A stretch of DNA of 25,190 nt from Fidelibacterota bacterium (GTDB taxonomy: Bacteria > Fidelibacterota > Marinisomatia > Marinisomatales > TCS56): assembly GCA_043822705.1 (NCBI GenBank), contig JBDRBK010000094.1:1-25190 (forward strand). Reading direction: 5' to 3'. Both the position numbers and the translations under genes were made by a program. Below, piece after piece: positions 4,866-22,650 of this stretch. Each line of letters begins with the position of its first letter. Within the stretch, counting starts at the first letter, position 1. The notes below the pieces were generated by a model that searched no databases, was not told where the DNA came from, and worked only from the letters and a program-made list of their open reading frames with translations.

Positions 4866-6554
4866 TTATTGTCCACGTTCGATTTTCGCCCAACTATCTC
4901 GCAGCGGAACGGTCCGATTGAATACCAGCTTCTCATCTGTAGCGTCGTCTTTATCGACAAAAAAGTAACCGTGACGGATGAATTGGAAACGCTGGCCCGG
5001 TTCTGCCAGAGCCAGACTTGGTTCAACCAGGGCGGTGAGCACTTCCAGCGAATCGGGATTTAGATTGACGGTGAAATCTTCACCTTCCGCCACCTGGTTG
5101 GGATTGGCTTTATTGAACAAGCGGTCGTAAATCCGGACTTCCGCTGGCAGTGCCTGAGCCGCCGATACCCAATGCAGTGTACCTTTTACTTTACGGTTGG
5201 CCTGATCGCCGCCGCTGCGCGAGTCAGGATCATAGCTGCAATGCAGCTCCCTGATTTCACCGCTGTTTTCATCTTTGAGGACACTATCGCAGCGAATAAT
5301 ATAGGCATGTTTCAGACGAACTTCCTTCCCCGGGGCCAGCCGGAAAAACTTTTTGTGCGGTTCTTCCTGAAAATCATCTTGCTCGATAAACAGCTCGCGA
5401 CTAAATGGCACCGGGCGGATTCCAGCCTCGGGATCTTCGGGATTGTTGACCGCTTCCAGGTATTCCACCTGCCCTGCAGGATAATTATCAATAACCAGTT
5501 TCAGCGGCTGCAGTACTGCCATCACCCGAATAGCTGTGAGATTCAATTCTTCTCGAATATAATGTTCAAGCAGGGCGATATCAGCGATATTGTCTTTTTT
5601 GGCAATCCCGACCCGGTCACAGAAATTCCTGATAGCGGCCGGCGTATAACCGCGACGTCGCAAACCTGAAAGGGTTGGCATCCGGGGATCATCCCAGCCA
5701 GAAACATAACCACCCTGGACCAGCAATAACAACTTGCGCTTGCTTAACAAGGTATAGCTGAGGTTCAGCCGGGCAAATTCGATCTGCTGTGGCTGAAACA
5801 CTCCTAATTGGACCAAAAACCAATCGTACAACGGTCGATGCGACTCAAATTCCAGCGTACACAAGGAATGGGTAATTCGTTCGATCGAGTCCTCGAGTCC
5901 ATGCGCCCAATCATACATTGGATAGATACACCAGGTACTCCCGGTCCGGGGATGACTGGTGTGCAGGATGCGGTAGATCACCGGGTCGCGCAGATTCAGA
6001 TTAGGCGAGGCCATCTCGATTTTGGCCCGCAGGACACGACTGCCGTCCGCGAATTCCCCGGCCCGCATCCGCCGGAACAGACCCAGGTTTTCCGCCACGG
6101 GGCGCTCGCGGTAGGGACTGTCCTGACCGGGTTCGGTCAGCGTTCCCCGATACTCCCGGATTTCATCGCCGGACAGGTCACAGACATAAGCCTTGCCGGC
6201 CAGGATTAACTGTTCGGCCAATTGGTATAACTGTTCAAAATAGTCGGAGGCGAAGAATAACCGATCCTGCCAGTCATAACCTAACCAGCGGACATCCTCG
6301 ATGATCGACCGGATATACTCCTCTTCTTCTTTGATAGGGTTGGTATCGTCGAAGCGTAGATTGCACAGGCCGCCGTATTCATCGGCAATCCCGAAGTTCA
6401 GTACGATCGATTTGGCATGTCCGATATGCAGGTAACCGTTCGGCTCGGGTGGGAAACGGGTGTGTACCCGGCCTTTGTTTTTACCCTGTTCGAGGTCGCG
6501 GTCGATGATTTCCTTGATAAAATTAGCGGCTTTTTTAGGCTGTTCTTCTGTCAT
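4866..6554 (-). CDS. glnS: Glutamine--tRNA ligase
   Basis: [19 protein letters not shown] (HIGH), [14 protein letters not shown] (KMSKS equivalent), [43 protein letters not shown]. Confidence 0.98.
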
Positions 6555-10552: not shown

Positions 10553-10864
10553 ATTCTGTCTCCACCTCCAACAATCTGGTGAACATGTTTGAGTAAGATT
10601 AGTACCAAATTATCCTATCATGTAAAATCATAATATTTAGTATCTAATGTTATGGGATAGAATTATGTTGTGAGAATCAGTGGCTCTTAGCGGATTGTTG
10701 TTAATTCTGAATGATATGATCATCGGTAATCATTTCTCCCATGCCCCAGCCTGCACTATATGCCATATTCGGATTGGGTATTCGAATATATTACCTTTTA
10801 AGAGCTTATAAAAATGAAAAACCCGCTCCACGGCGGGTTTTAATTGGTAGCCCGTAGGGGATTC

Positions 10865-10898
10865 CCCGCCTGACCGCTGACGCAGTCAGTCGGGCTGG
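10865..10898. repeat. 34-nt palindromic T-loop insert, copy 1 (tRNA-Glu fragment)
   Basis: + strand CCCGCCTGACCGCTGACGCAGTCAGTCGGGCTGG between GGATTC and GAACCCC. Confidence 0.95.
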
Positions 10899-11006
10899 GA
10901 ACCCCTGTTACCTGTAAATTAATCTATTTCTCAGCAATAATCTTTACTTCTGAAATGTTCTGATGAAAACCCCTGTTATAAAAGGAAAACCCGCCACAGG
11001 GCGGGT

Positions 11007-12572
11007 CAGACTGTTGACAAAGTCCTCGCAGAGCTGCGGGGACTTTTTTATAATTGTACATGTTAAAACCCTATTGTGATAAGCAGATACAATTAGAATA
11101 TGTAAGCATCGAGGGATTAGTACCGGACAACCACCTTCTGCGCAAAATAGACCGCGCAATCGACTTTGATTTCATCCGTGAAAAAGTCAGGGATTTATAT
11201 TGTTCTGACAATGGTCGGCCGGCGATTGATCCGGTAATATTATTCAAGATGCTATTCATCGGTTACTTGTTTGGCATCCGCAGTGAGCGGCAACTGATCC
11301 GTGATATTGAAGTAAATGTAGCCTACCGCTGGTTTCTTGGAATGAACCTGACCGACAAGATACCGGATGCTTCGACCCTGAGTCAGAACCGTCGTCGTCG
11401 CTTTACCGGCAGTACGATTTATCAGGAGATATTCGATGAGATCGTATTTCAGTCCATGCGTCGCCAGTTAGTTGACGGTAAAGTGCTTTATACCGACTCA
11501 ACCCATTTAAAGGCCAGCGCGAATAAAATTAAGTTTGAGAAGAAAGCGGTTAAAAAATCCATTTGTTCCTATTTTGATGCTCTGGAACAGGCTATTACAA
11601 AAGACCGTGCAGCTCATGGAAAGCAGCCCTTAACACCCCAGCCACCGGAACCGGAGGTCAAGCAGACCAAGATCAGTACAACCGATCCTGATAGTGGCTA
11701 TATGGTCCGTGAAGGTAAGCCAAAGGGTTTTTTCTATCTTGATCACCGCAGTGTGGATGGCAAACACAACATTATTACCGACTGTCATGTTACCCCGGCC
11801 AATGTACATGACAGTATTCCATATCTTGATCGACTGGATCGTCAGCGTGATCGTTTTGGTTTTGATGTGGATACGGTTGGGTTGGACGCCGGATATTTTA
11901 GCGCTTCAATATGTAAAGGTCTGGAGGACCGTGGTATTTATGGTGTGATCGGTTACCGTCGCCCCAACCACAAACAGGGTTATCTCAGGAAAGCGGAGTT
12001 TGTTTATTGTCAGGAAAAGGATTGTTATTATTGTCCCGGAGGGCAGGAACTTAAATACCGGACAACTACTCGTCAGGGCTACCGTGAATACCAATCAAAT
12101 CCTAAATTGTGTCGGCAGTGTTCTTTTCTGAAGTGCTGTACCAACAGTGCCAACTACACCAAAATAGTTACCCGTCATATCTGGGAGGAGAGTAAAGAGC
12201 GCATCGACAGCCACCGCTTAACTGAACGTGGAAAGAAGCTGTACAAACGGCGTAAAGAAACGGTTGAGCGAAGTTTTGCCGATTCGAAACAGCTCCACGG
12301 TCACCGCTATGCCCGAATGCGCGGGCTGTTAAAAGTTCAAGAGCAATCCTTATTGTGCGCTGCATGCCAGAATATGAAGAAGATAGCCTCGCAGGTGTGG
12401 GAAACTATCTTTTCGTCAAAATGGCGCCAACAGAACCCCGTTTTTGATTATCTGCGTAATCTGGTGAATTATATCCGGATTAATTTCGATAGCCGCCAAA
12501 TACAAGTTATTGAAGGCAATTTGTGTTAAAACAAACCCCGCTTAAGAAAAAACGGGGTTTGTCAGCGATCTG
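11007..12572 (+). mobile_element. IS1182-family insertion sequence
   Basis: Imperfect terminal IRs CAGACTGTTGACAAA and CAGATCGCTGACAAA (reverse complement of right end). 18-bp direct repeat ACCCGCCACAGGGCGGGT at 10989-11006 and 12573-12590. Boundary is uncertain by 1 nt because the target is palindromic. Confidence 0.9.
11060..12529 (+). CDS. IS1182 family DDE transposase
   Basis: LVPDNHLLRKID, GRPAIDPV.LFKML, SERQL, YTDSTHLKASA, STTDPDSG, LDAGY, CPGG, YKRRKETVERSFADSKQLHG. Uninterrupted; start is ATG 11060 or TTG 11054. Confidence 0.95.
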   Translation: MLKPYCDKQIQLEYVSIEGLVPDNHLLRKIDRAIDFDFIREKVRDLYCSDNGRPAIDPVILFKMLFIGYLFGIRSERQLIRDIEVNVAYRWFLGMNLTDKIPDASTLSQNRRRRFTGSTIYQEIFDEIVFQSMRRQLVDGKVLYTDSTHLKASANKIKFEKKAVKKSICSYFDALEQAITKDRAAHGKQPLTPQPPEPEVKQTKISTTDPDSGYMVREGKPKGFFYLDHRSVDGKHNIITDCHVTPANVHDSIPYLDRLDRQRDRFGFDVDTVGLDAGYFSASICKGLEDRGIYGVIGYRRPNHKQGYLRKAEFVYCQEKDCYYCPGGQELKYRTTTRQGYREYQSNPKLCRQCSFLKCCTNSANYTKIVTRHIWEESKERIDSHRLTERGKKLYKRRKETVERSFADSKQLHGHRYARMRGLLKVQEQSLLCAACQNMKKIASQVWETIFSSKWRQQNPVFDYLRNLVNYIRINFDSRQIQVIEGNLC

Positions 12573-12616
12573 ACCCGCCACAGGGCGGGTCTTAATTCGT
12601 AGCCCGTAGGGGATTC

Positions 12617-12650
12617 CCCGCCTGACCGCTGACGCAGTCAGTCGGGCTGG
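12617..12650. repeat. 34-nt palindromic T-loop insert, copy 2 (tRNA-Glu fragment)
   Basis: Identical to copy 1, same flanks. Confidence 0.95.
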
Positions 12651-12784
12651 GAACCCCTGTTACCGGTAAATTAATCTAAGTCTGAGCAATAATCTTCACT
12701 TCTGAAATGCGCTGATGTAAACCCTTGTTATAAAATGAAGACCCGCCACATGGCGGGTTTGAATCTGTAGCCCGTAGGGGATTC

Positions 12785-12817
12785 CCCGCCTGACCGCGAC
12801 GCAGTCAGTCGGGCTGG
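12785..12817. repeat. 33-nt palindromic T-loop insert, copy 3 (tRNA-Glu fragment)
   Basis: Same as copy 1 with one T deleted in the central loop (CCGCGACGCA). Confidence 0.95.
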
Positions 12818-12903
12818 GAACCCCTGTTACTGGTAAATTAATCTAAGTCTGAGCAATAATCTTCACTTCTGAAATGCGCTGATGTAAACCCCGTTATAAA
12901 ATG

Positions 12904-12927
12904 AAAACCCACCACACGGCGGGTTTT
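12904..12927 (-). terminator. Intrinsic terminator after tRNA-Glu (repeated in each array unit)
   Basis: Minus strand AAAA-CCCGCC-GTGT-GGTGGG-TTTTCATTTT. The stem has a G.U wobble only as minus-strand RNA. Variants at about 10817-10841, 10986-11006 and 12740-12760. Confidence 0.75.
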
Positions 12928-12930
12928 AAT

Positions 12931-13005
12931 TGGTAGCCCGTAGGGGATTCGAACCCCTGTTACCGGCGTGAGAGGCCAGCGTCCTAACCCCTAGACGAAC
13001 GGGCC
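12931..13005 (-). tRNA. tRNA-Glu(CTC)
   Basis: GGCCCGTTCGTCTAGGGGTTAGGACGCTGGCCT-CTC-ACGCCGGTAACAGGGGTTCGAATCCCCTACGGGCTACCA; full cloverleaf, CCA encoded. Confidence 0.97.
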
Positions 13006-13010
13006 AGTAG

Positions 13011-13084
13011 TACACCCGGAAGGACTCGAACCCTCAACCTTCTGGTCCGTAGCCAGACGCTCTATCCAATTGAGCTACGGGTGC
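13011..13084 (-). tRNA. tRNA-Arg(ACG)
   Basis: GCACCCGTAGCTCAATTGGATAGAGCGTCTGGCT-ACG-GACCAGAAGGTTGAGGGTTCGAGTCCTTCCGGGTGTA; CCA not encoded. Confidence 0.96.
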
Positions 13085-13091
13085 ATAACTG

Positions 13092-13162
13092 CTGGGGAGC
13101 AGGGATTCGAACCCCGATTGACGGATCCAGAGCCCGCAGTCTTGCCATTAGACGACTCCCCA
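13092..13162 (-). tRNA. tRNA-Gln(CTG)
   Basis: TGGGGAGTCGTCTAATGGCAAGACTGCGGGCT-CTG-GATCCGTCAATCGGGGTTCGAATCCCTGCTCCCCAG; CCA not encoded. Confidence 0.96.
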
Positions 13163-13184
13163 AGTTTGTCGAAAAGCGGTGGCG

Positions 13185-13190
13185 AATTTA
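13185..13190 (-). promoter_or_regulatory. Putative -10 element (TAAATT) of the tRNA operon
   Basis: TAAATTCGCC about 22 nt upstream of tRNA-Gln; the same hexamer recurs upstream of several other genes in the window. Confidence 0.5.
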
Positions 13191-13353
13191 AACTGGATAA
13201 ACCAGCCTTCAAACGGCTTTCCCGCAAATAGCGGACCAAATTGCAAAAAGACCGTATAATCGTCGTCCAACGGATTAACTGCTTATTCTGCGGGGCCACA
13301 TCTGGTTAAGAAAACAAGCAAAAGAATACGGTATTCGATCGTTCCGACAGAGA

Positions 13354-14652
13354 TCAGAGATAACGATTCAGAAATTCATCCAATTCGTTTTCCGGAATGA
13401 ATTTCAAACTTACCCGCGACAACCGACTGACTTCGTCGACATCGAGGTCGAATTGATAATTGACCGGGATTTCAACCGTTTCCATGGCAATCTGGAGCGA
13501 CCAGCCACCGACGGTGAATATGATCAGCGGTGAAAAATAATGGGCCGGCACGAATAATACCCGGTCGGATACCAGGCGCTGCAGTTTCTCCTCCGGGGAA
13601 TCAGTGATGACCACCACGACCTTGCCGTCGGCATCGAAGAACCGGATCACCGGAATCGCCCGGTAATTACCGGTCCGGATTTTTTCCATCGCCACCGGCG
13701 GGAAATTGAATTTATCCTTGTTGAAATAAAATATTGTCAGGCTGCCATCCTGTTTCAAACCGCTGTATGGTAACGATGTCAGCATGTCCTTGATCAGGTG
13801 CTCTTTCAATGAAAATTTTACGGGGAGGACCACGTTCATTAATTCCTGTTGATCCTGATCGTATTCGAACCGCGGTTTGGCGATACTGATATTATACGGT
13901 GATTCGGTCAGGTCGTTGAGCACCTTCAGCAGCATATCGGTGTTGGCGGTCAATTCCGGGTTGGCGCGGGTGTAATCCTTGCCGCTGATATCCAGTACCC
14001 ACTCCCCATCGGTCACCACCGGCTCGTCGGGTGACGCCGTGCCGCGGGCGCCGATTACCAGATCCATCGACTCTTCCAAGCCATCCAGCGCCACATCGAT
14101 CGAAGCCCCCATTTCGCCGACTTGCGCTTTATATTCCGGTCTGATTGCGACCGCGACCGGTTCCGGCATATCGAAAGGTGTTGGTTGGGCTTCCACCGGC
14201 ATAAACGGCATCAGCATGGCGTTGACCGCATCCACTACGCGTTCATTAAATTCCGGGATTTTGGAATAAACACCAGCCGTATTGCGCCGGCCCACTTCTT
14301 CCCAGGTGGCAATATCGATCAACTGGATGCCCACCTTGATCTCATCCAGCGCGCGCTCGAATTTACCCAGCAGCAGATAATTTTTAGTACCCCGAGGCTG
14401 ATGTAAAAGACGATTCCGGTTACTCATCAGTTCTTCCAGATCGTCCTTATTCTGCACCTTGACAGCGCTAACCTGGGCGAACTTCAGGCTGAGCATATCG
14501 CTGAGACCCGGCCGCAGCCAGTCCACGGCGGGATCATTCTGGATGTTCTCAAACGGTAAAATATACAGGTAAATCACCGGGGACGCCCCTCCGATCAGAG
14601 TGGCCGAAAAAGTGACAATTGAGAAAATCAGTGTTCTAAATCGTCGGTACAT
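13354..14652 (-). CDS. Secreted hypothetical protein with N-terminal TolB-N/CsgG/FlgO-like domain
   Basis: Signal-like N-terminus, then ILPFENIQNDPAVDWLRPGLSDML...LLLGKFER....KVGIQLIDIAT. Confidence 0.7.
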   Translation of the reverse strand: MYRRFRTLIFSIVTFSATLIGGASPVIYLYILPFENIQNDPAVDWLRPGLSDMLSLKFAQVSAVKVQNKDDLEELMSNRNRLLHQPRGTKNYLLLGKFERALDEIKVGIQLIDIATWEEVGRRNTAGVYSKIPEFNERVVDAVNAMLMPFMPVEAQPTPFDMPEPVAVAIRPEYKAQVGEMGASIDVALDGLEESMDLVIGARGTASPDEPVVTDGEWVLDISGKDYTRANPELTANTDMLLKVLNDLTESPYNISIAKPRFEYDQDQQELMNVVLPVKFSLKEHLIKDMLTSLPYSGLKQDGSLTIFYFNKDKFNFPPVAMEKIRTGNYRAIPVIRFFDADGKVVVVITDSPEEKLQRLVSDRVLFVPAHYFSPLIIFTVGGWSLQIAMETVEIPVNYQFDLDVDEVSRLSRVSLKFIPENELDEFLNRYL

Positions 14653-14670
14653 GCTTGAGAAATATAGCCC

Positions 14671-16092
14671 TTAGGGTAGTTTTTCCAAAGCCAATTTTAA
14701 TCGACTGAAACAAGTTTCCCGGCCCAGTATCTCCATCAGGATAAACAGCGACGGTCCTTCGCCGATTCCCGTCAGTGCCAAGCGTACCGGATGGATCAAT
14801 TTCCCGGCCGCGACCTTTTCGGCGATGATGGTTTCGCGCAACTGCTCCTCGATATTTTCACTGTTCCAATCGCTAATAATCTGCAGCCGCTCCAGGTACT
14901 TGTGCACCAGTCGATTCACTTCCTGATCGGGCCAGCGCTTGGCACTGGTTTTCTCATCGTAGCCGGCCGGCGGTGCATAAAAATAACCGCTGGAATCCAT
15001 CAATTCCCGCAACGACCGGGCCCGCGGTTTCAACTGTTCGATCACCCGTAAATTGTATTCATCGCTGCGTTCGCGATTCCAATCCGGGGCGATGCTGCGG
15101 ATGCCGTCAAAAATGGCGCGGTCGGACATTGCCAGCAGATGCCGGCTGCAAACCCAATTCAATTTCTTTTCGTCATAAACGGCGCCTTTTTTCTGAACCT
15201 GTTCCAGTTGGAAAAGCTCAATCAACTGGTCCGTACTGAAAATTTCCTGGTCGTTGTCAGGATTCCAGCCCAGCAAAGCCAGGTAATTCAGCAGTGCCGG
15301 TGGTGGATAACCGGCATCCCGGAAGGCCTGGATACCGGGCGCGTTGTGGCGTTTGCTGAGCCGTTTTTTGTCCTCGCCGAGGATCATCGGCAAATGGGCA
15401 AATTCAGGAATAGCGTAATTTAGAGCCTGATAGATCAGAATCTGTTTTGGTGTATTAGAAATATGATCCTCACCGCGGATCACGTGGGTGATATCCATGT
15501 CGTGATCGTCGACCACGACCACCAGGTTGTATACCGGGGAACCATCCGAACGGGCGATAATGAAGTCATCGATTTCGCGGTTGTTCACCCGCACCGTGCC
15601 ATAGATCCGATCGTTGAAAACGGTTTCTCCGGTTGGAATTTTAAGCCTGATCGTAAATGATTGTCCCTGATTCAACCGGGCTTTGATCTCGCCATCGCCA
15701 AGTTCCCGGCAGGTTCCAGGGTACACAAATTCCTGGCCCGGCGGCGCATTTTGGCGGTCCTGCTCAATCTGGTCCTTGGAACAGAAACACCGATAAGCCT
15801 GTCCGGATTTGAGTAATATTTGCAGGGCTTTTTTATAATCGCTCAGTCGCTGCGACTGATGCAATACCGGGCCATCCCAATTCAGGCCCAGCCAGCGCAG
15901 GGATGACAGTATCTGATCGGTATATTCGTCCTTGGAACGGACTTTATCGGTGTCTTCGATACGCAGGTGAAACTGCCCCCGATTGTGGCGGGCAAACAGC
16001 CAGTTAAAAAGTGCCGTCCGGGCGCCGCCAAGATGGAGCTCGCCGGTGGGACTGGGGGCAAATCGCAGGTGAACAGTCGGTTCGGTTTTCAT
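14671..16092 (-). CDS. gltX: Glutamate--tRNA ligase
   Basis: RFAPSPTGELHLGGARTALFN, LRIEDTD, CFC...YPGTCR, DDHDMDITHVIRGEDHISNT, RLSKRH, C-terminal PVRLALTG..EGP anticodon-binding domain. Confidence 0.98.
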   Translation of the reverse strand: MKTEPTVHLRFAPSPTGELHLGGARTALFNWLFARHNRGQFHLRIEDTDKVRSKDEYTDQILSSLRWLGLNWDGPVLHQSQRLSDYKKALQILLKSGQAYRCFCSKDQIEQDRQNAPPGQEFVYPGTCRELGDGEIKARLNQGQSFTIRLKIPTGETVFNDRIYGTVRVNNREIDDFIIARSDGSPVYNLVVVVDDHDMDITHVIRGEDHISNTPKQILIYQALNYAIPEFAHLPMILGEDKKRLSKRHNAPGIQAFRDAGYPPPALLNYLALLGWNPDNDQEIFSTDQLIELFQLEQVQKKGAVYDEKKLNWVCSRHLLAMSDRAIFDGIRSIAPDWNRERSDEYNLRVIEQLKPRARSLRELMDSSGYFYAPPAGYDEKTSAKRWPDQEVNRLVHKYLERLQIISDWNSENIEEQLRETIIAEKVAAGKLIHPVRLALTGIGEGPSLFILMEILGRETCFSRLKLALEKLP

Positions 16093-16272
16093 CAGTAATC
16101 GTAAATATCCGGATGTAATTGATCAAAATTAACAGCGGAAAATACACAGGATAAGATTGAAAAAATACTCCGTGATCGTTAATAGTGTACTTGTGACTGT
16201 TGGTGTGCTGGTCTGGGTGGCACAGCTACAGAAATTCTTCCAGAAAATAGTCCAGCGGAGGCGAGAGGATTC

Positions 16273-16306
16273 CCCGCCTAACCGCTGACGCAGTCAGTCG
16301 GGCAGG
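16273..16306. repeat. 34-nt palindromic T-loop insert, copy 4 (tRNA-Ser fragment)
   Basis: CCCGCCTAACCGCTGACGCAGTCAGTCGGGCAGG between GGATTC and GAACCTC. Confidence 0.95.
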
Positions 16307-16554
16307 GAACCTCCGGAGGCTGTGATCCTGTCAATAAAACGTCTTCCGGCACTGGATTTAAGGTATTTTTCCCTTTCCCGTGCTGACGACCGTGAACCGA
16401 CATATTGTTGATAAATCAACTTGAAAGGTGTATGATGTTTGGTCGATTTGACTTTGCCGGCATTATGCGATTTCAGACGATTTTCCGGCTTCTCAGACAT
16501 GCCGGTATATCTGAATCCATCTGATAAACTTTCAATTACATACACATAATACAT
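16294..16554 (-). CDS. GIY-YIG nuclease family protein (YhbQ/UPF0213-like), distal copy
   Basis: YYVYVI...YTGMS...RLKSHN.G..KSTK...P..LIY......RSSA..REK.LKS; catalytic Tyr/Arg/His/Glu positions present. Confidence 0.92.
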   Translation of the reverse strand: MYYVYVIESLSDGFRYTGMSEKPENRLKSHNAGKVKSTKHHTPFKLIYQQYVGSRSSAREREKYLKSSAGRRFIDRITASGGSLPD

Positions 16555-16574
16555 CCGCGGAGGCGAGAGGATTC

Positions 16575-16608
16575 CCCGACTGACCGCTGACGCAGTCAGT
16601 CGGGCAGG
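16575..16608. repeat. 34-nt palindromic T-loop insert, copy 5 (tRNA-Ser fragment)
   Basis: CCCGACTGAC-CGCTGACGCA-GTCAGTCGGG-CAGG; perfect 10-bp inverted repeat. Confidence 0.95.
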
Positions 16609-16856
16609 GAACTTCTGGAGGCTGTGATCCGGTCAATGAAACGTCTTCCGGCACAGGATTTAAGGTATTTTTCCCTTTCCCGTGCTGACGATCGTGAACC
16701 GACATATTGTTGATAAATCAACCTGAAAGGTGTATGATATTTGGTCGATTTGACTTTGCCGGCATTATGCGATTTCAGACGATTATTTGGCTTCTCAGAC
16801 ATGCCGGTATATCTGAATCCATCTGATAAACTTTCAATTACATACACATAATACAT
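16596..16856 (-). CDS. GIY-YIG nuclease family protein, proximal copy
   Basis: 86 aa from ATG 16856; differs from the distal copy at 6 residues. The track's 114-aa version merely reads through the tRNA. Confidence 0.92.
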   Translation of the reverse strand: MYYVYVIESLSDGFRYTGMSEKPNNRLKSHNAGKVKSTKYHTPFRLIYQQYVGSRSSAREREKYLKSCAGRRFIDRITASRSSLPD

Positions 16857-16859
16857 CCG

Positions 16860-16946
16860 CGGAGGCGAGAGGATTCGAACCTCTGGAGGGCGTAAACCCT
16901 CAACGGTTTTCAAGACCGCCGCATTCAACCGCTCTGCCACGCCTCC
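16860..16946 (-). tRNA. tRNA-Ser(TGA)
   Basis: GGAGGCGTGGCAGAGCGGTTGAATGCGGCGGTCT-TGA-AAACCGTTGAGGGTTTACGCCCTCCAGAGGTTCGAATCCTCTCGCCTCCG; long variable arm, G discriminator, no CCA. Confidence 0.96.
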
Positions 16947-22379: not shown

Positions 22380-22563
22380 GGCGGAGAATTTAGGTTGCCG
22401 GGTATAAAAGAAAAAAGTTGGAACTGTTTTACCGATCAACTGGCTCCGGGATTTATACGGTAACCGGAATTATGAAGCTCAAACCGGACGGTTAGAATAG
22501 ACATATGACCGATATAATAAGAATTGTGAATTGTACTTTTTAAAACATAGAAATAGTACATAG

Positions 22564-22650
22564 CGGAGAGGCGGGGATTCGAACCCCGGAATAGATTTCT
22601 CTATTACATGCTTTCCAAGCAAGCGCCTTCAGCCTCTCGGCCACCTCTCC
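22564..22650 (-). tRNA. tRNA-Ser(GGA)
   Basis: GGAGAGGTGGCCGAGAGGCTGAAGGCGCTTGCTT-GGA-AAGCATGTAATAGAGAAATCTATTCCGGGGTTCGAATCCCCGCCTCTCCG; long variable arm; one U-U mismatch in the anticodon stem. Confidence 0.94.

Follow-up and report, generated by a model that had tools for sequence, protein, structure and literature searches.

A conserved hairpin and small GIY-YIG nuclease genes at spare tRNA 3' ends in a Fidelibacterota bacterium

In the Ssn family, the gene of a single-domain GIY-YIG nuclease is bordered by a hairpin repeat, as for SsnA of Neisseria meningitidis and its NTS/SRM (Chenal 2025, PMC11893778). According to that paper, SsnA is 94 amino acids (aa) long, has the catalytic residues Y6, Y17 and E64, binds its flanking hairpin only as single-stranded DNA (ssDNA), cuts a few nucleotides (nt) upstream and tolerates loop extensions; together with NTS it modulates transformation in Neisseria, and the authors liken the Ssn arrangement to an insertion sequence (IS) (PMC11893778). 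Here we describe a comparable layout in a 25,190-nt stretch of DNA from a Fidelibacterota bacterium (assembly GCA_043822705.1, contig JBDRBK010000094.1, positions 1 to 25,190; hereafter the window), where a 34-nt hairpin is lodged in spare 3' ends of tRNA-Glu and tRNA-Ser genes and, at the tRNA-Ser locus, borders small GIY-YIG open reading frames (ORFs).

Other systems touch on tRNA ends, hairpins or GIY-YIG enzymes in different ways. tRNA genes are landing sites for integrase-borne islands, and integrases duplicate tRNA 3' ends. REPs (repetitive extragenic palindromes) are short palindromes, and in both the IS200/IS605 and the REP/RAYT systems HUH enzymes of the Y1 type act on single-stranded hairpins. 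GIY-YIG enzymes hydrolyse DNA, form no covalent intermediate and cannot transfer or join strands; the Seg enzymes of phages are larger, include a DNA-binding part and cut double-stranded DNA, and we know of no hairpin and no split tRNA copy described for them. Finally, a duplicated gene end characterizes the mORFs of fungal mitochondria, which have been described in atp6 of Allomyces and in atp6, atp9, cox2 and nad3 of Glomus (PMC3630166).

Hairpin copies and cassettes in the window

The repeated hairpin in spare tRNA T-loops was confirmed as real. A first-pass annotation of the window had listed five copies of a 34-nt palindrome, and five are indeed present where it had placed them, although one measures 33 nt and the genome contains a diverged sixth copy on a different contig (C211). 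When we searched the window for the plus-strand 34-mer CCCGCCTGACCGCTGACGCAGTCAGTCGGGCTGG, allowing up to 3 mismatches, matches were found at 10865-10898, 12617-12650, 16273-16306 and 16575-16608, differing by at most 2 mismatches, versus none in each of 100 shuffles; the fifth copy, identified with blastn-short at 12785-12817, is the 33-nt one and has a 1-nt deletion. Three copies are located in spare tRNA-Glu 3' ends and two in spare tRNA-Ser(UGA) 3' ends. On the plus strand each of them is preceded by GGATTC and followed by GAACC, and in tRNA sense the insertion point is GGTTC^GAATCC, behind the third T-loop base, in all five cases. The orientation relative to the tRNA is likewise identical throughout and no target duplication was seen around the five copies, so the insertion described earlier, exactly between GTTC and GAATCC and in one direction, holds for every copy read.

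The flanks match the local tRNA, as had also been claimed: at 10.8-12.8 kb they correspond to the last ~35 nt of tRNA-Glu(CTC) and at 16.3-16.6 kb to the 3' end of tRNA-Ser(TGA). Between the Glu and the Ser locus the sole significant shared sequence is 44-45 nt long and comprises the insert plus the T-loop halves, in agreement with the proposal that the insert is all the two loci have in common. The window's five intact tRNAs, as called by ARAGORN and Rfam, are without the insert, in line with the annotation, and at gathering level Rfam reported these five tRNAs and nothing else in the window.

At the Ser locus, the hairpin belongs to a larger unit that includes a nuclease gene. The features are as follows:

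17007-16980, minus strand: predicted promoter-like site upstream of tRNA-Ser(TGA)
16859-16946, minus strand: intact tRNA-Ser(TGA) (ARAGORN; Rfam, 59.1 bits)
16596-16856, minus strand: proximal GIY-YIG ORF, 86 aa (PF01541, E 2e-14)
16558-16624, minus strand: first hairpin-split spare tRNA-Ser 3' end (T-stem-side piece 16609-16624, hairpin 16575-16608, 3' piece 16558-16574)
16294-16554, minus strand: distal GIY-YIG ORF, 86 aa (PF01541, E 7.7e-16)
16256-16322, minus strand: second hairpin-split spare tRNA-Ser 3' end (T-stem-side piece 16307-16322, hairpin 16273-16306, 3' piece 16256-16272)
14671-16092, minus strand: gltX, downstream of the Ser array and the resident flank (Pfam)

The array of cassettes begins 3 nt past the 3' end of tRNA-Ser(TGA). 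In tRNA sense, the order is the intact tRNA, 3 nt, the 86-aa ORF, a 16-nt variable-arm/T-stem copy ending in GTTC, the hairpin and a 17-nt 3' piece; a second unit repeats the first (302 nt each, 289/302 identical, 13 differences) and is followed by the resident flank and gltX. A full unit, again in tRNA sense, opens with a 3' piece that runs from T-loop base 57 to the tRNA end and continues with the GIY-YIG ORF, a 5' T-stem copy ending in GGTTC and the hairpin. As this cassette sits at TTC^GA, the tRNA is rebuilt and a spare, hairpin-split 3' end is left downstream. In both ORFs the last codons traverse the tRNA-derived T-stem copy and the TGA stop lies inside the first hairpin arm (…GSLPD*); both have the hairpin at their 3' end, and the distal ORF has a further one upstream. 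The miniature element that had been put forward as the mobile unit is therefore, at the Ser locus, replaced by a whole cassette of tRNA 3' end, ORF, T-stem copy and hairpin, with the ORF ending in the hairpin. PF01541 spans residues 1-68 of both 86-aa ORFs, which show no second domain; the solved structures nearest to the protein are those of the UPF0213 proteins 1zg2 (E 9e-6) and 1ywl, and an NCBIfam search with it assigned no family. No terminator-like site was found inside the Ser array.

At the Glu locus, none of the units carries an ORF and an IS has split the array:

13091-13162 and 13010-13084: the other two tRNA genes of the Gln-Arg-Glu cluster (ARAGORN, Rfam)
12931-13005, minus strand: intact tRNA-Glu(CTC), last in the cluster (ARAGORN, Rfam)
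12769-12830, minus strand: ORF-less unit 1, spare tRNA-Glu 3' end split by the 33-nt copy at 12785-12817
12758-12741, minus strand: terminator-like hairpin after unit 1
12601-12663, minus strand: ORF-less unit 2, spare tRNA-Glu 3' end split by the hairpin at 12617-12650
11008-12573, plus strand: IS splitting the array (transposase ORF 11054-12529; Pfam DUF772, DDE_Tnp_1_6, DDE_Tnp_1)
10849-10911, minus strand: ORF-less unit 3, spare tRNA-Glu 3' end split by the hairpin at 10865-10898
10841-10818, minus strand: terminator-like hairpin by unit 3

The three units follow downstream of the intact tRNA-Glu at spacings of 166 and 168 nt and are not identical to one another; each is made up of the 3' piece, a terminator-like hairpin, a spacer of ~100 nt, a 13-nt T-stem-side copy and the hairpin. 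The IS landed in the terminator palindrome of one unit, and the 18-nt palindrome is duplicated at 10990-11007 and 12574-12591. The repeated units at both the Ser and the Glu locus bear out the earlier suggestion of a coupling to tandem amplification. A frame in the Glu spacer, NGVYISAFQK, recalls the ORF starts; as an ORF remnant it was too weak and was not used. Near the Gln-Arg-Glu cluster lie two genes for class-I tRNA synthetases of Glu/Gln type (4866-6554 and 14671-16092), one with GlnRS-type C-terminal domains and the other of GltX type with Anticodon_2.

Distribution, empty sites and conservation of the hairpin

The genome is a metagenome-assembled genome (MAG) of 3.34 Mb in 218 contigs, derived from a short-read assembly with 6% contamination. 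Six hairpin copies were found in these 3.34 Mb; five of them are at TTC^GA and three terminate a GIY-YIG ORF. The sixth, diverged copy (C211:3063-3090) lies outside any T-loop, directly after a third small GIY-YIG gene, behind tRNA-Asn. PF01541 has eight matches genome-wide, one in a UvrC-sized frame of 630 aa and seven that are small, and each of the seven small ones has a tRNA gene, a tmRNA gene or a piece of such a gene as its neighbour:

C94: two intact GIY-YIG ORFs, next to tRNA-Ser(TGA)
C94, window positions 22563-22650, minus strand: tRNA-Ser(GGA), with a GIY-YIG remnant starting 2 nt downstream
C94, window positions 22421-22561, minus strand: this decayed remnant (MYYFYVLKS…), with one in-frame TGA (PF01541 E 0.0034, 19.5 bits, below the cut-off)
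C211: one GIY-YIG ORF, next to tRNA-Asn
C151: GIY-YIG pseudogene, next to tRNA-Ser(CGA)
C7 (19900-20200): one GIY-YIG ORF directly downstream of tmRNA
C5 (31339-31691): tandem GIY-YIG copies, next to tmRNA 3' fragments

The T-loop of the spare tRNA or tmRNA end is interrupted on C211 and C5 too, but there the hairpins are different ones and the break comes two or three bases later. A tRNA-Asn 3' copy at C211:2600-3100 is split after TTCGAG by a different hairpin of ~31 nt, directly upstream of the GIY-YIG ORF, and the tmRNA 3' fragments that accompany the GIY-YIG copies of C5 are split by yet another hairpin. No integrase and no Y1/HUH gene was detected among the 23 window ORFs scanned (PF01797 included), as the first-pass annotation had noted for RAYT and integrase genes. 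The genome has five Y1_Tnp matches (C115, C162, C176, C106 and C149), on contigs that hold no hairpin copy. The hairpin copies thus track with small GIY-YIG genes, three of the six ending such an ORF, and not with RAYT or integrase genes.

We then turned to other genomes, searching 60 relatives for the hairpin, a genome collection (exact pattern, one genome per species) and metagenomes. The hairpin was found in G004, a member of the same family and of another genus, and in eleven public MAGs, with the T-loop position in 8 of these 12 genomes. All six copies of G004 are at TTC^GA. Downstream of its orthologous tRNA-Ser(TGA) lie two 303-nt units (303/303 identical) with a diverged but intact GIY-YIG ORF, downstream of tRNA-Ser(CGA) two units with a decayed ORF, and downstream of tRNA-Lys(CTT) two ORF-less units of 91 nt. 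The terminator carried by these Lys units is unlike the resident one, which identifies them as inserted DNA and not as a local duplication.

The genome-collection scan yielded 55 matches in 12 MAGs; for 7 matches the flanks were unreadable because a contig end was too near (in one MAG this applied to 7 of 38 copies). Fourteen matches in 8 MAGs, one of them with N-masked flanks, are at T-loops, belonging to tRNAs for Lys, Ser (2 species), Leu(CAA), Leu(CAG), Glu and Asn; these eight MAGs include G004, three Cyclobacteriaceae and members of Sphingobacteriales, Roseivirgaceae and Fidelibacterota. At six of the T-loop loci an upstream GIY-YIG ORF ends in the hairpin (E 1e-21 to 1e-41 against the window protein). 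The metagenome scan returned 98 matches in 80 fetched loci, 5 of them at T-loops plus a few that are T-loop-like. Of the 80 loci, 3 contain a GIY-YIG ORF, in each case with a T-loop copy (Leu(CAA) and Gln(TTG)); around the solo metagenome copies, no nuclease gene was seen to a distance of 700 nt. If G004, the public MAGs and the metagenome contigs are taken together, eight tRNA species have spare copies with the hairpin at TTC^GA.

A GIY-YIG ORF bordered by the hairpin also occurs in L020, L031, L034, L040, L055, L094 and L098, and at every ORF-bearing copy read (10 loci) the hairpin contains the ORF stop codon. L034 and L040 have retained the terminator after the rebuilt tRNA, ahead of the ORF. 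Reduced forms exist as well: in L030 just the first few ORF codons remain, representing an internal deletion, L057 has the hairpin at the T-loop and no ORF, and ORF-less derivative units are found at Glu in the window and at Lys, Asn and Leu in other genomes.

The hairpin has two habitats, namely T-loops and arrays of heptamer repeats. Its 34-nt ends (CCTG…CGGG) are the same in both, and the common junction is (T)TC^G or CTG^G. In the Rikenellaceae MAG G061 (L013-L056) and the metagenome loci L092-L171, a heptamer array often contains several hairpins, at spacings of, for example, 48, 55 and 62 nt. A pattern of four GTCTTCN units matches G061 222 times, overlaps included, so heptamer arrays occur both with and without the hairpin, and many of the copies within arrays sit at contig ends.

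Small GIY-YIG genes were followed in five further genomes, where a tRNA or tmRNA lay within the retrieved sequence at nine of 15 loci and was absent at six, two of these six being broken off at contig ends. Spare tRNA copies are split at TTC^GA by other hairpins in L060, L063 and L064. L060 (G061:C46, 1-560 in reverse-complement orientation) has two full-length tRNA-Arg(CCT) pseudo-copies upstream of the intact gene, each with three hairpin inserts (in the D-loop, just after the D-loop and in the T-loop at TTC^GA), and a GIY-YIG cassette downstream. A second conserved hairpin, CCAACCTGCG(Y)CCCGAT(G/A)AA(Y)CGGG…TTCGGTTGG, starts exactly at the tRNA 3' end (…CTCCGCCA); it was found downstream of tRNA-Ser in L076, L077, L088, L002 and G000:C151, with or without a GIY-YIG gene behind it.

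Comparing orthologous tRNA-Ser loci, a check proposed at the outset, revealed both states of the site. tRNA-Ser(TGA) adjoins gltX without a cassette in seven relatives (G020, G019, G003, G007, G015, G009 and G016; in G009 a tRNA-Ser(GGA) gene intervenes, again without a cassette), and the site is filled in G004. The order tRNA-Ser(TGA)-gltX is ancestral. At the same tRNA end, G005 and G017 have other types of GIY-YIG gene and hairpin, and G002 has a lone 3'-end hairpin.

A comparison of the window with G004 gives ~74% identity for the unit, 32-33 of 34 matching positions for the hairpin and 76% identity for the adjoining gltX piece; between phyla, the hairpin is unchanged or differs at 1-2 positions, in cassettes whose ORFs have diverged. 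The ssDNA fold of the sense strand has a stem of 13 bp capped by a GTCA loop (-15.3 kcal/mol, z -5.4; 0/200 shuffles as good), and the antisense strand folds less well (-12.1 kcal/mol) because a T·G pair turns into A·C. Judging from these folds, selection seems to act on the sense strand of the hairpin, as DNA or RNA. In the related hairpin of L060 both arms differ and the palindrome persists; conservation combined with paired changes of the arms is what would be expected of a sequence that is read by a protein. A Glu copy folds together with the T-stem and the TTC/GAA halves into one long hairpin, and the 5' T-stem strand is kept in every spare copy, the shortest such piece being 8 nt (Lys). 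In a FastTree phylogeny, read without support values, 11 of 12 proteins with the hairpin at their 3' end fall into one clade.

Origin and spread of the cassettes

The explanation we favor, and which we consider reasonably probable, is that these are Ssn-like nuclease/hairpin cassettes residing at tRNA ends. The hairpin would be cognate to a clade of ~80-90-aa GIY-YIG proteins, and the two would form a selfish-looking unit of ~300 bp that gives rise to ORF-less derivatives and undergoes tandem amplification. This explanation builds on features that can be read directly, namely the layout, the exact site, the orientation, the empty sites, the derivatives, the solo spread and the conservation. 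By analogy with SsnA, the nuclease would bind the sense strand of the hairpin as ssDNA and cut a few bases upstream, close to the TTC|CCTG joint. Cutting would release a 3' end (…T-stem-TTC) with homology to its own place as well as to the intact upstream tRNA, and out-of-register invasion of that tRNA, followed by copying, would add one unit. Such a gain would explain why multi-unit arrays are common (Ser, Ser, Ser, Lys, Glu, Leu) and why units resemble each other within a genome. Empty alleles might be reached via break repair or by recombination through the tRNA-derived arms, and ORF-less units could be moved or maintained in trans.

A number of points weigh against this explanation. Since GIY-YIG enzymes only hydrolyse, every pasting step must be host repair, which is assumed, and the mechanism accounts neither for the colonization of new tRNA species nor for the pasting of a 34-nt unit. 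The intact tRNA keeps an unbroken T-loop, so a simple rule by which empty sites are cut and filled ones are immune fails. Both the T-stem-side and the 3' pieces match the local tRNA, and the cassette is therefore not a fixed element that is simply cut and pasted; in G017 (L089), the split end within an intact cassette downstream of tRNA-Ser(GGA) comes from another Ser tRNA, so that the arms can travel with the cassette. The published SRM motif HGTCWYN(0-2)YYVSBRHN(0-5)WNVSBRGN(0-2)RNCYNB has 0 matches on either strand of the window. Moreover, most public copies are solo and lie in 7-nt repeat arrays far from tRNA or nuclease genes: (GTCTTCN)n or (GGTACTG)n arrays that lack a tRNA account for 34 of the 55 genome-scan matches, in four Bacteroidales MAGs, and heptamer arrays account for 85 of the 98 metagenome matches. 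The T-arm specificity proposed in the first-pass annotation consequently holds in part, for five of six copies here, for six of six in G004, across eight tRNA species and as a T-loop preference in 8 of 12 genomes, but not for the array copies. Lastly, copy numbers derive from short-read MAG assemblies.

A more far-reaching possibility, which we regard as rather unlikely, is a new class of mobile DNA. Its sole enzyme would be a hydrolytic single-strand nuclease of ~85 aa and its smallest unit the 34-nt hairpin, placed after TTC in ssDNA by cuts and host repair. The T-arm, universally conserved and itself a hairpin when the gene is unwound, would then be a natural landing pad, and the element would survive there because the full cassette brings or regenerates the tRNA 3' end. 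tRNA genes would, in that case, be the habitat of a hairpin-guided parasite that has no transposase, recombinase or reverse transcriptase.

Compared with integrase-borne islands, what tRNA genes host here is far smaller and would differ in mechanism, consisting of a minimal nuclease gene and one conserved hairpin. If the nuclease acts like Ssn, the cassettes would provide a natural role and a target for a new enzyme family as well as a new recognition sequence for single-strand DNA tools, and they would account for the unusual 'pseudo-tRNA' fragments and the tandem repeats that occur downstream of tRNA genes in Bacteroidota and phyla related to it. Such arrays break assemblies and can mislead tRNA and gene callers.

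Classical homing, as known from mORFs and phage Seg enzymes, would instead begin with a double-strand cut in a cassette-free T-arm; repair would then copy in the cassette with its replacement 3' end, and the hairpin would merely wreck the displaced copy. The exact insertion point and the orthologous empty and filled sites fit this scenario, as does a topology that is the same as that of mORFs (PMC3630166). However, the rebuilt T-loop is intact, with even the terminator kept in L034 and L040, so that filled alleles would stay cleavable, and the 86-aa protein is a bare catalytic domain without a DNA-binding domain. A hairpin far more conserved than the ORF is also unexpected of a mere site-breaker, and the 34-nt unit spreads alone as well. 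We therefore deem classical homing improbable.

The patchy occurrence among relatives, with seven empty sites, the existence of pseudogenes, remnants and ORF-less units, and the competition of several cassette and hairpin types for the same tRNA ends all argue against a module that serves the host. Such a module would exert SsnA-like control over ssDNA restriction or recombination, or supply a signal for RNA processing or stability, with the T-loop position as a side effect. It has a precedent in the modulation of Neisseria transformation by SsnA and NTS (PMC11893778). The Ser cassette, in addition, seems about as old as the split of the two genera, and co-transcription with the tRNA is possible as the Ser array has no terminator-like site. 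There is no T-run behind the hairpin, however, and we give a host-serving role little credence.

An origin as att leftovers of integrase islands in tRNA 3' ends, later hit by a RAYT-moved REP element, is very unlikely: integrases do duplicate tRNA 3' ends, REPs are palindromic and the genome has 5 Y1_Tnp matches, but neither an integrase nor a Y1 transposase accompanies any copy or occurs elsewhere in the window (with the Y1 matches on five other contigs), the units measure merely 91-303 nt and contain a GIY-YIG ORF or a terminator only, and the hairpin holds the ORF stop at each of the 10 ORF-bearing loci. Similarly, we see hardly any chance that the tandem repeats are artefacts of short-read MAG assembly, despite the 218 contigs and 6% contamination, the identity of the G004 units at 303/303 positions and four public DNA runs that cover only the intact tRNA-Ser and parts of gltX and leave the cassettes uncovered (the six public DNA runs contain at most 0.08 of the sampled words of this DNA), since the two Ser units differ at 13/302 positions, the three Glu units differ and one of them is split by an IS, and the architecture recurs across assemblies of many separate projects. 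A tRNA intron or split tRNA was ruled out, as the hairpin-bearing copies are without a whole 5' tRNA half, and so was a staggered-cut target duplication, as the 5' duplicated stretch varies from 8 to 22 nt and in L034 the 3' side runs past the terminator.

Comparison with described systems

Several known systems share individual traits with the window. Integrase islands differ from it in that no integrase domain was found in the 23 window ORFs scanned, the units are 166-302 nt long and the repeat is interrupted by a hairpin. The IS200/IS605 and REP/RAYT systems resemble it in their hairpin-defined ends, insertion after a fixed short word (here TTC), lack of target duplication and non-autonomous copies consisting of the hairpin only; they differ in that no Y1/HUH gene is linked to the window hairpins. 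With the GIY-YIG homing endonucleases of phage tRNA clusters (T4 SegB), the window shares the location of the gene among or behind tRNA genes and a spread that is probably by break repair.

The mORFs are among the closest known systems. Their topology of a host gene 5' part, an inserted replacement 3' end, an endonuclease ORF and a displaced native 3' end is also that of the window cassettes, and in both cases empty and filled alleles exist among relatives (PMC3630166); the carried and the displaced gene ends are found here alongside seven cassette-free relatives. Their enzymes, in contrast, are of LAGLIDADG type, make double-strand breaks and operate in another compartment, and the inserted mORF end diverges from the native one (PMC3630166). 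In the window the host gene is a tRNA, the two ends do not differ from each other and a conserved hairpin interrupts the displaced one. Insertion in the window does not seem to destroy the enzyme's recognition site, as the T-arm of the rebuilt tRNA is intact, which counts against the simple form of homing only.

The other close counterpart is the Ssn family. Both systems comprise a single-domain GIY-YIG protein of ~90 aa whose gene is bordered by a conserved hairpin of 20-50 nt, and in both the hairpin multiplies on its own in some genomes (PMC11893778). In length and in having a single domain, the two 86-aa ORFs resemble the ~90-100-aa GIY-YIG proteins of this family (cd10448), and both Ser ORFs are hairpin-flanked genes. 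In translation, the protein displays ..YVYVIE.., ..RYTG.. and ..AREREKYLK.., which would fit the GIY-YIG catalytic motif. Once lodged in the T-loop, the window hairpin forms an outer TTCCC…GGGGAATC stem that resembles the NTS core ATTCCCGCG…GCGGGAATC, a likeness to be taken as a lead and not as a test. Unlike Ssn in its published form, the window hairpin occupies the T-loop of a spare tRNA end, and its cassette restores the tRNA; the word tRNA occurs 0 times in the main text of that paper and, in 12 of its 14 supplements, only within gene descriptions (PMC11893778).

No published account of GIY-YIG cassettes at tRNA genes was found in the literature searched, which left most subscription journals outside. 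The first-pass annotation had not recognized a described system in the window, and this stands in part: the pairing of a GIY-YIG nuclease with a flanking hairpin is known and has been published as Ssn (PMC11893778), and the tRNA-embedded layout appears to be undescribed. What the window adds to the known pairing is one hairpin at one exact T-loop position, recurring in eight tRNA species, together with ORF-less units, a solo expansion elsewhere and a conservation of the hairpin that extends far beyond that of its nuclease gene.

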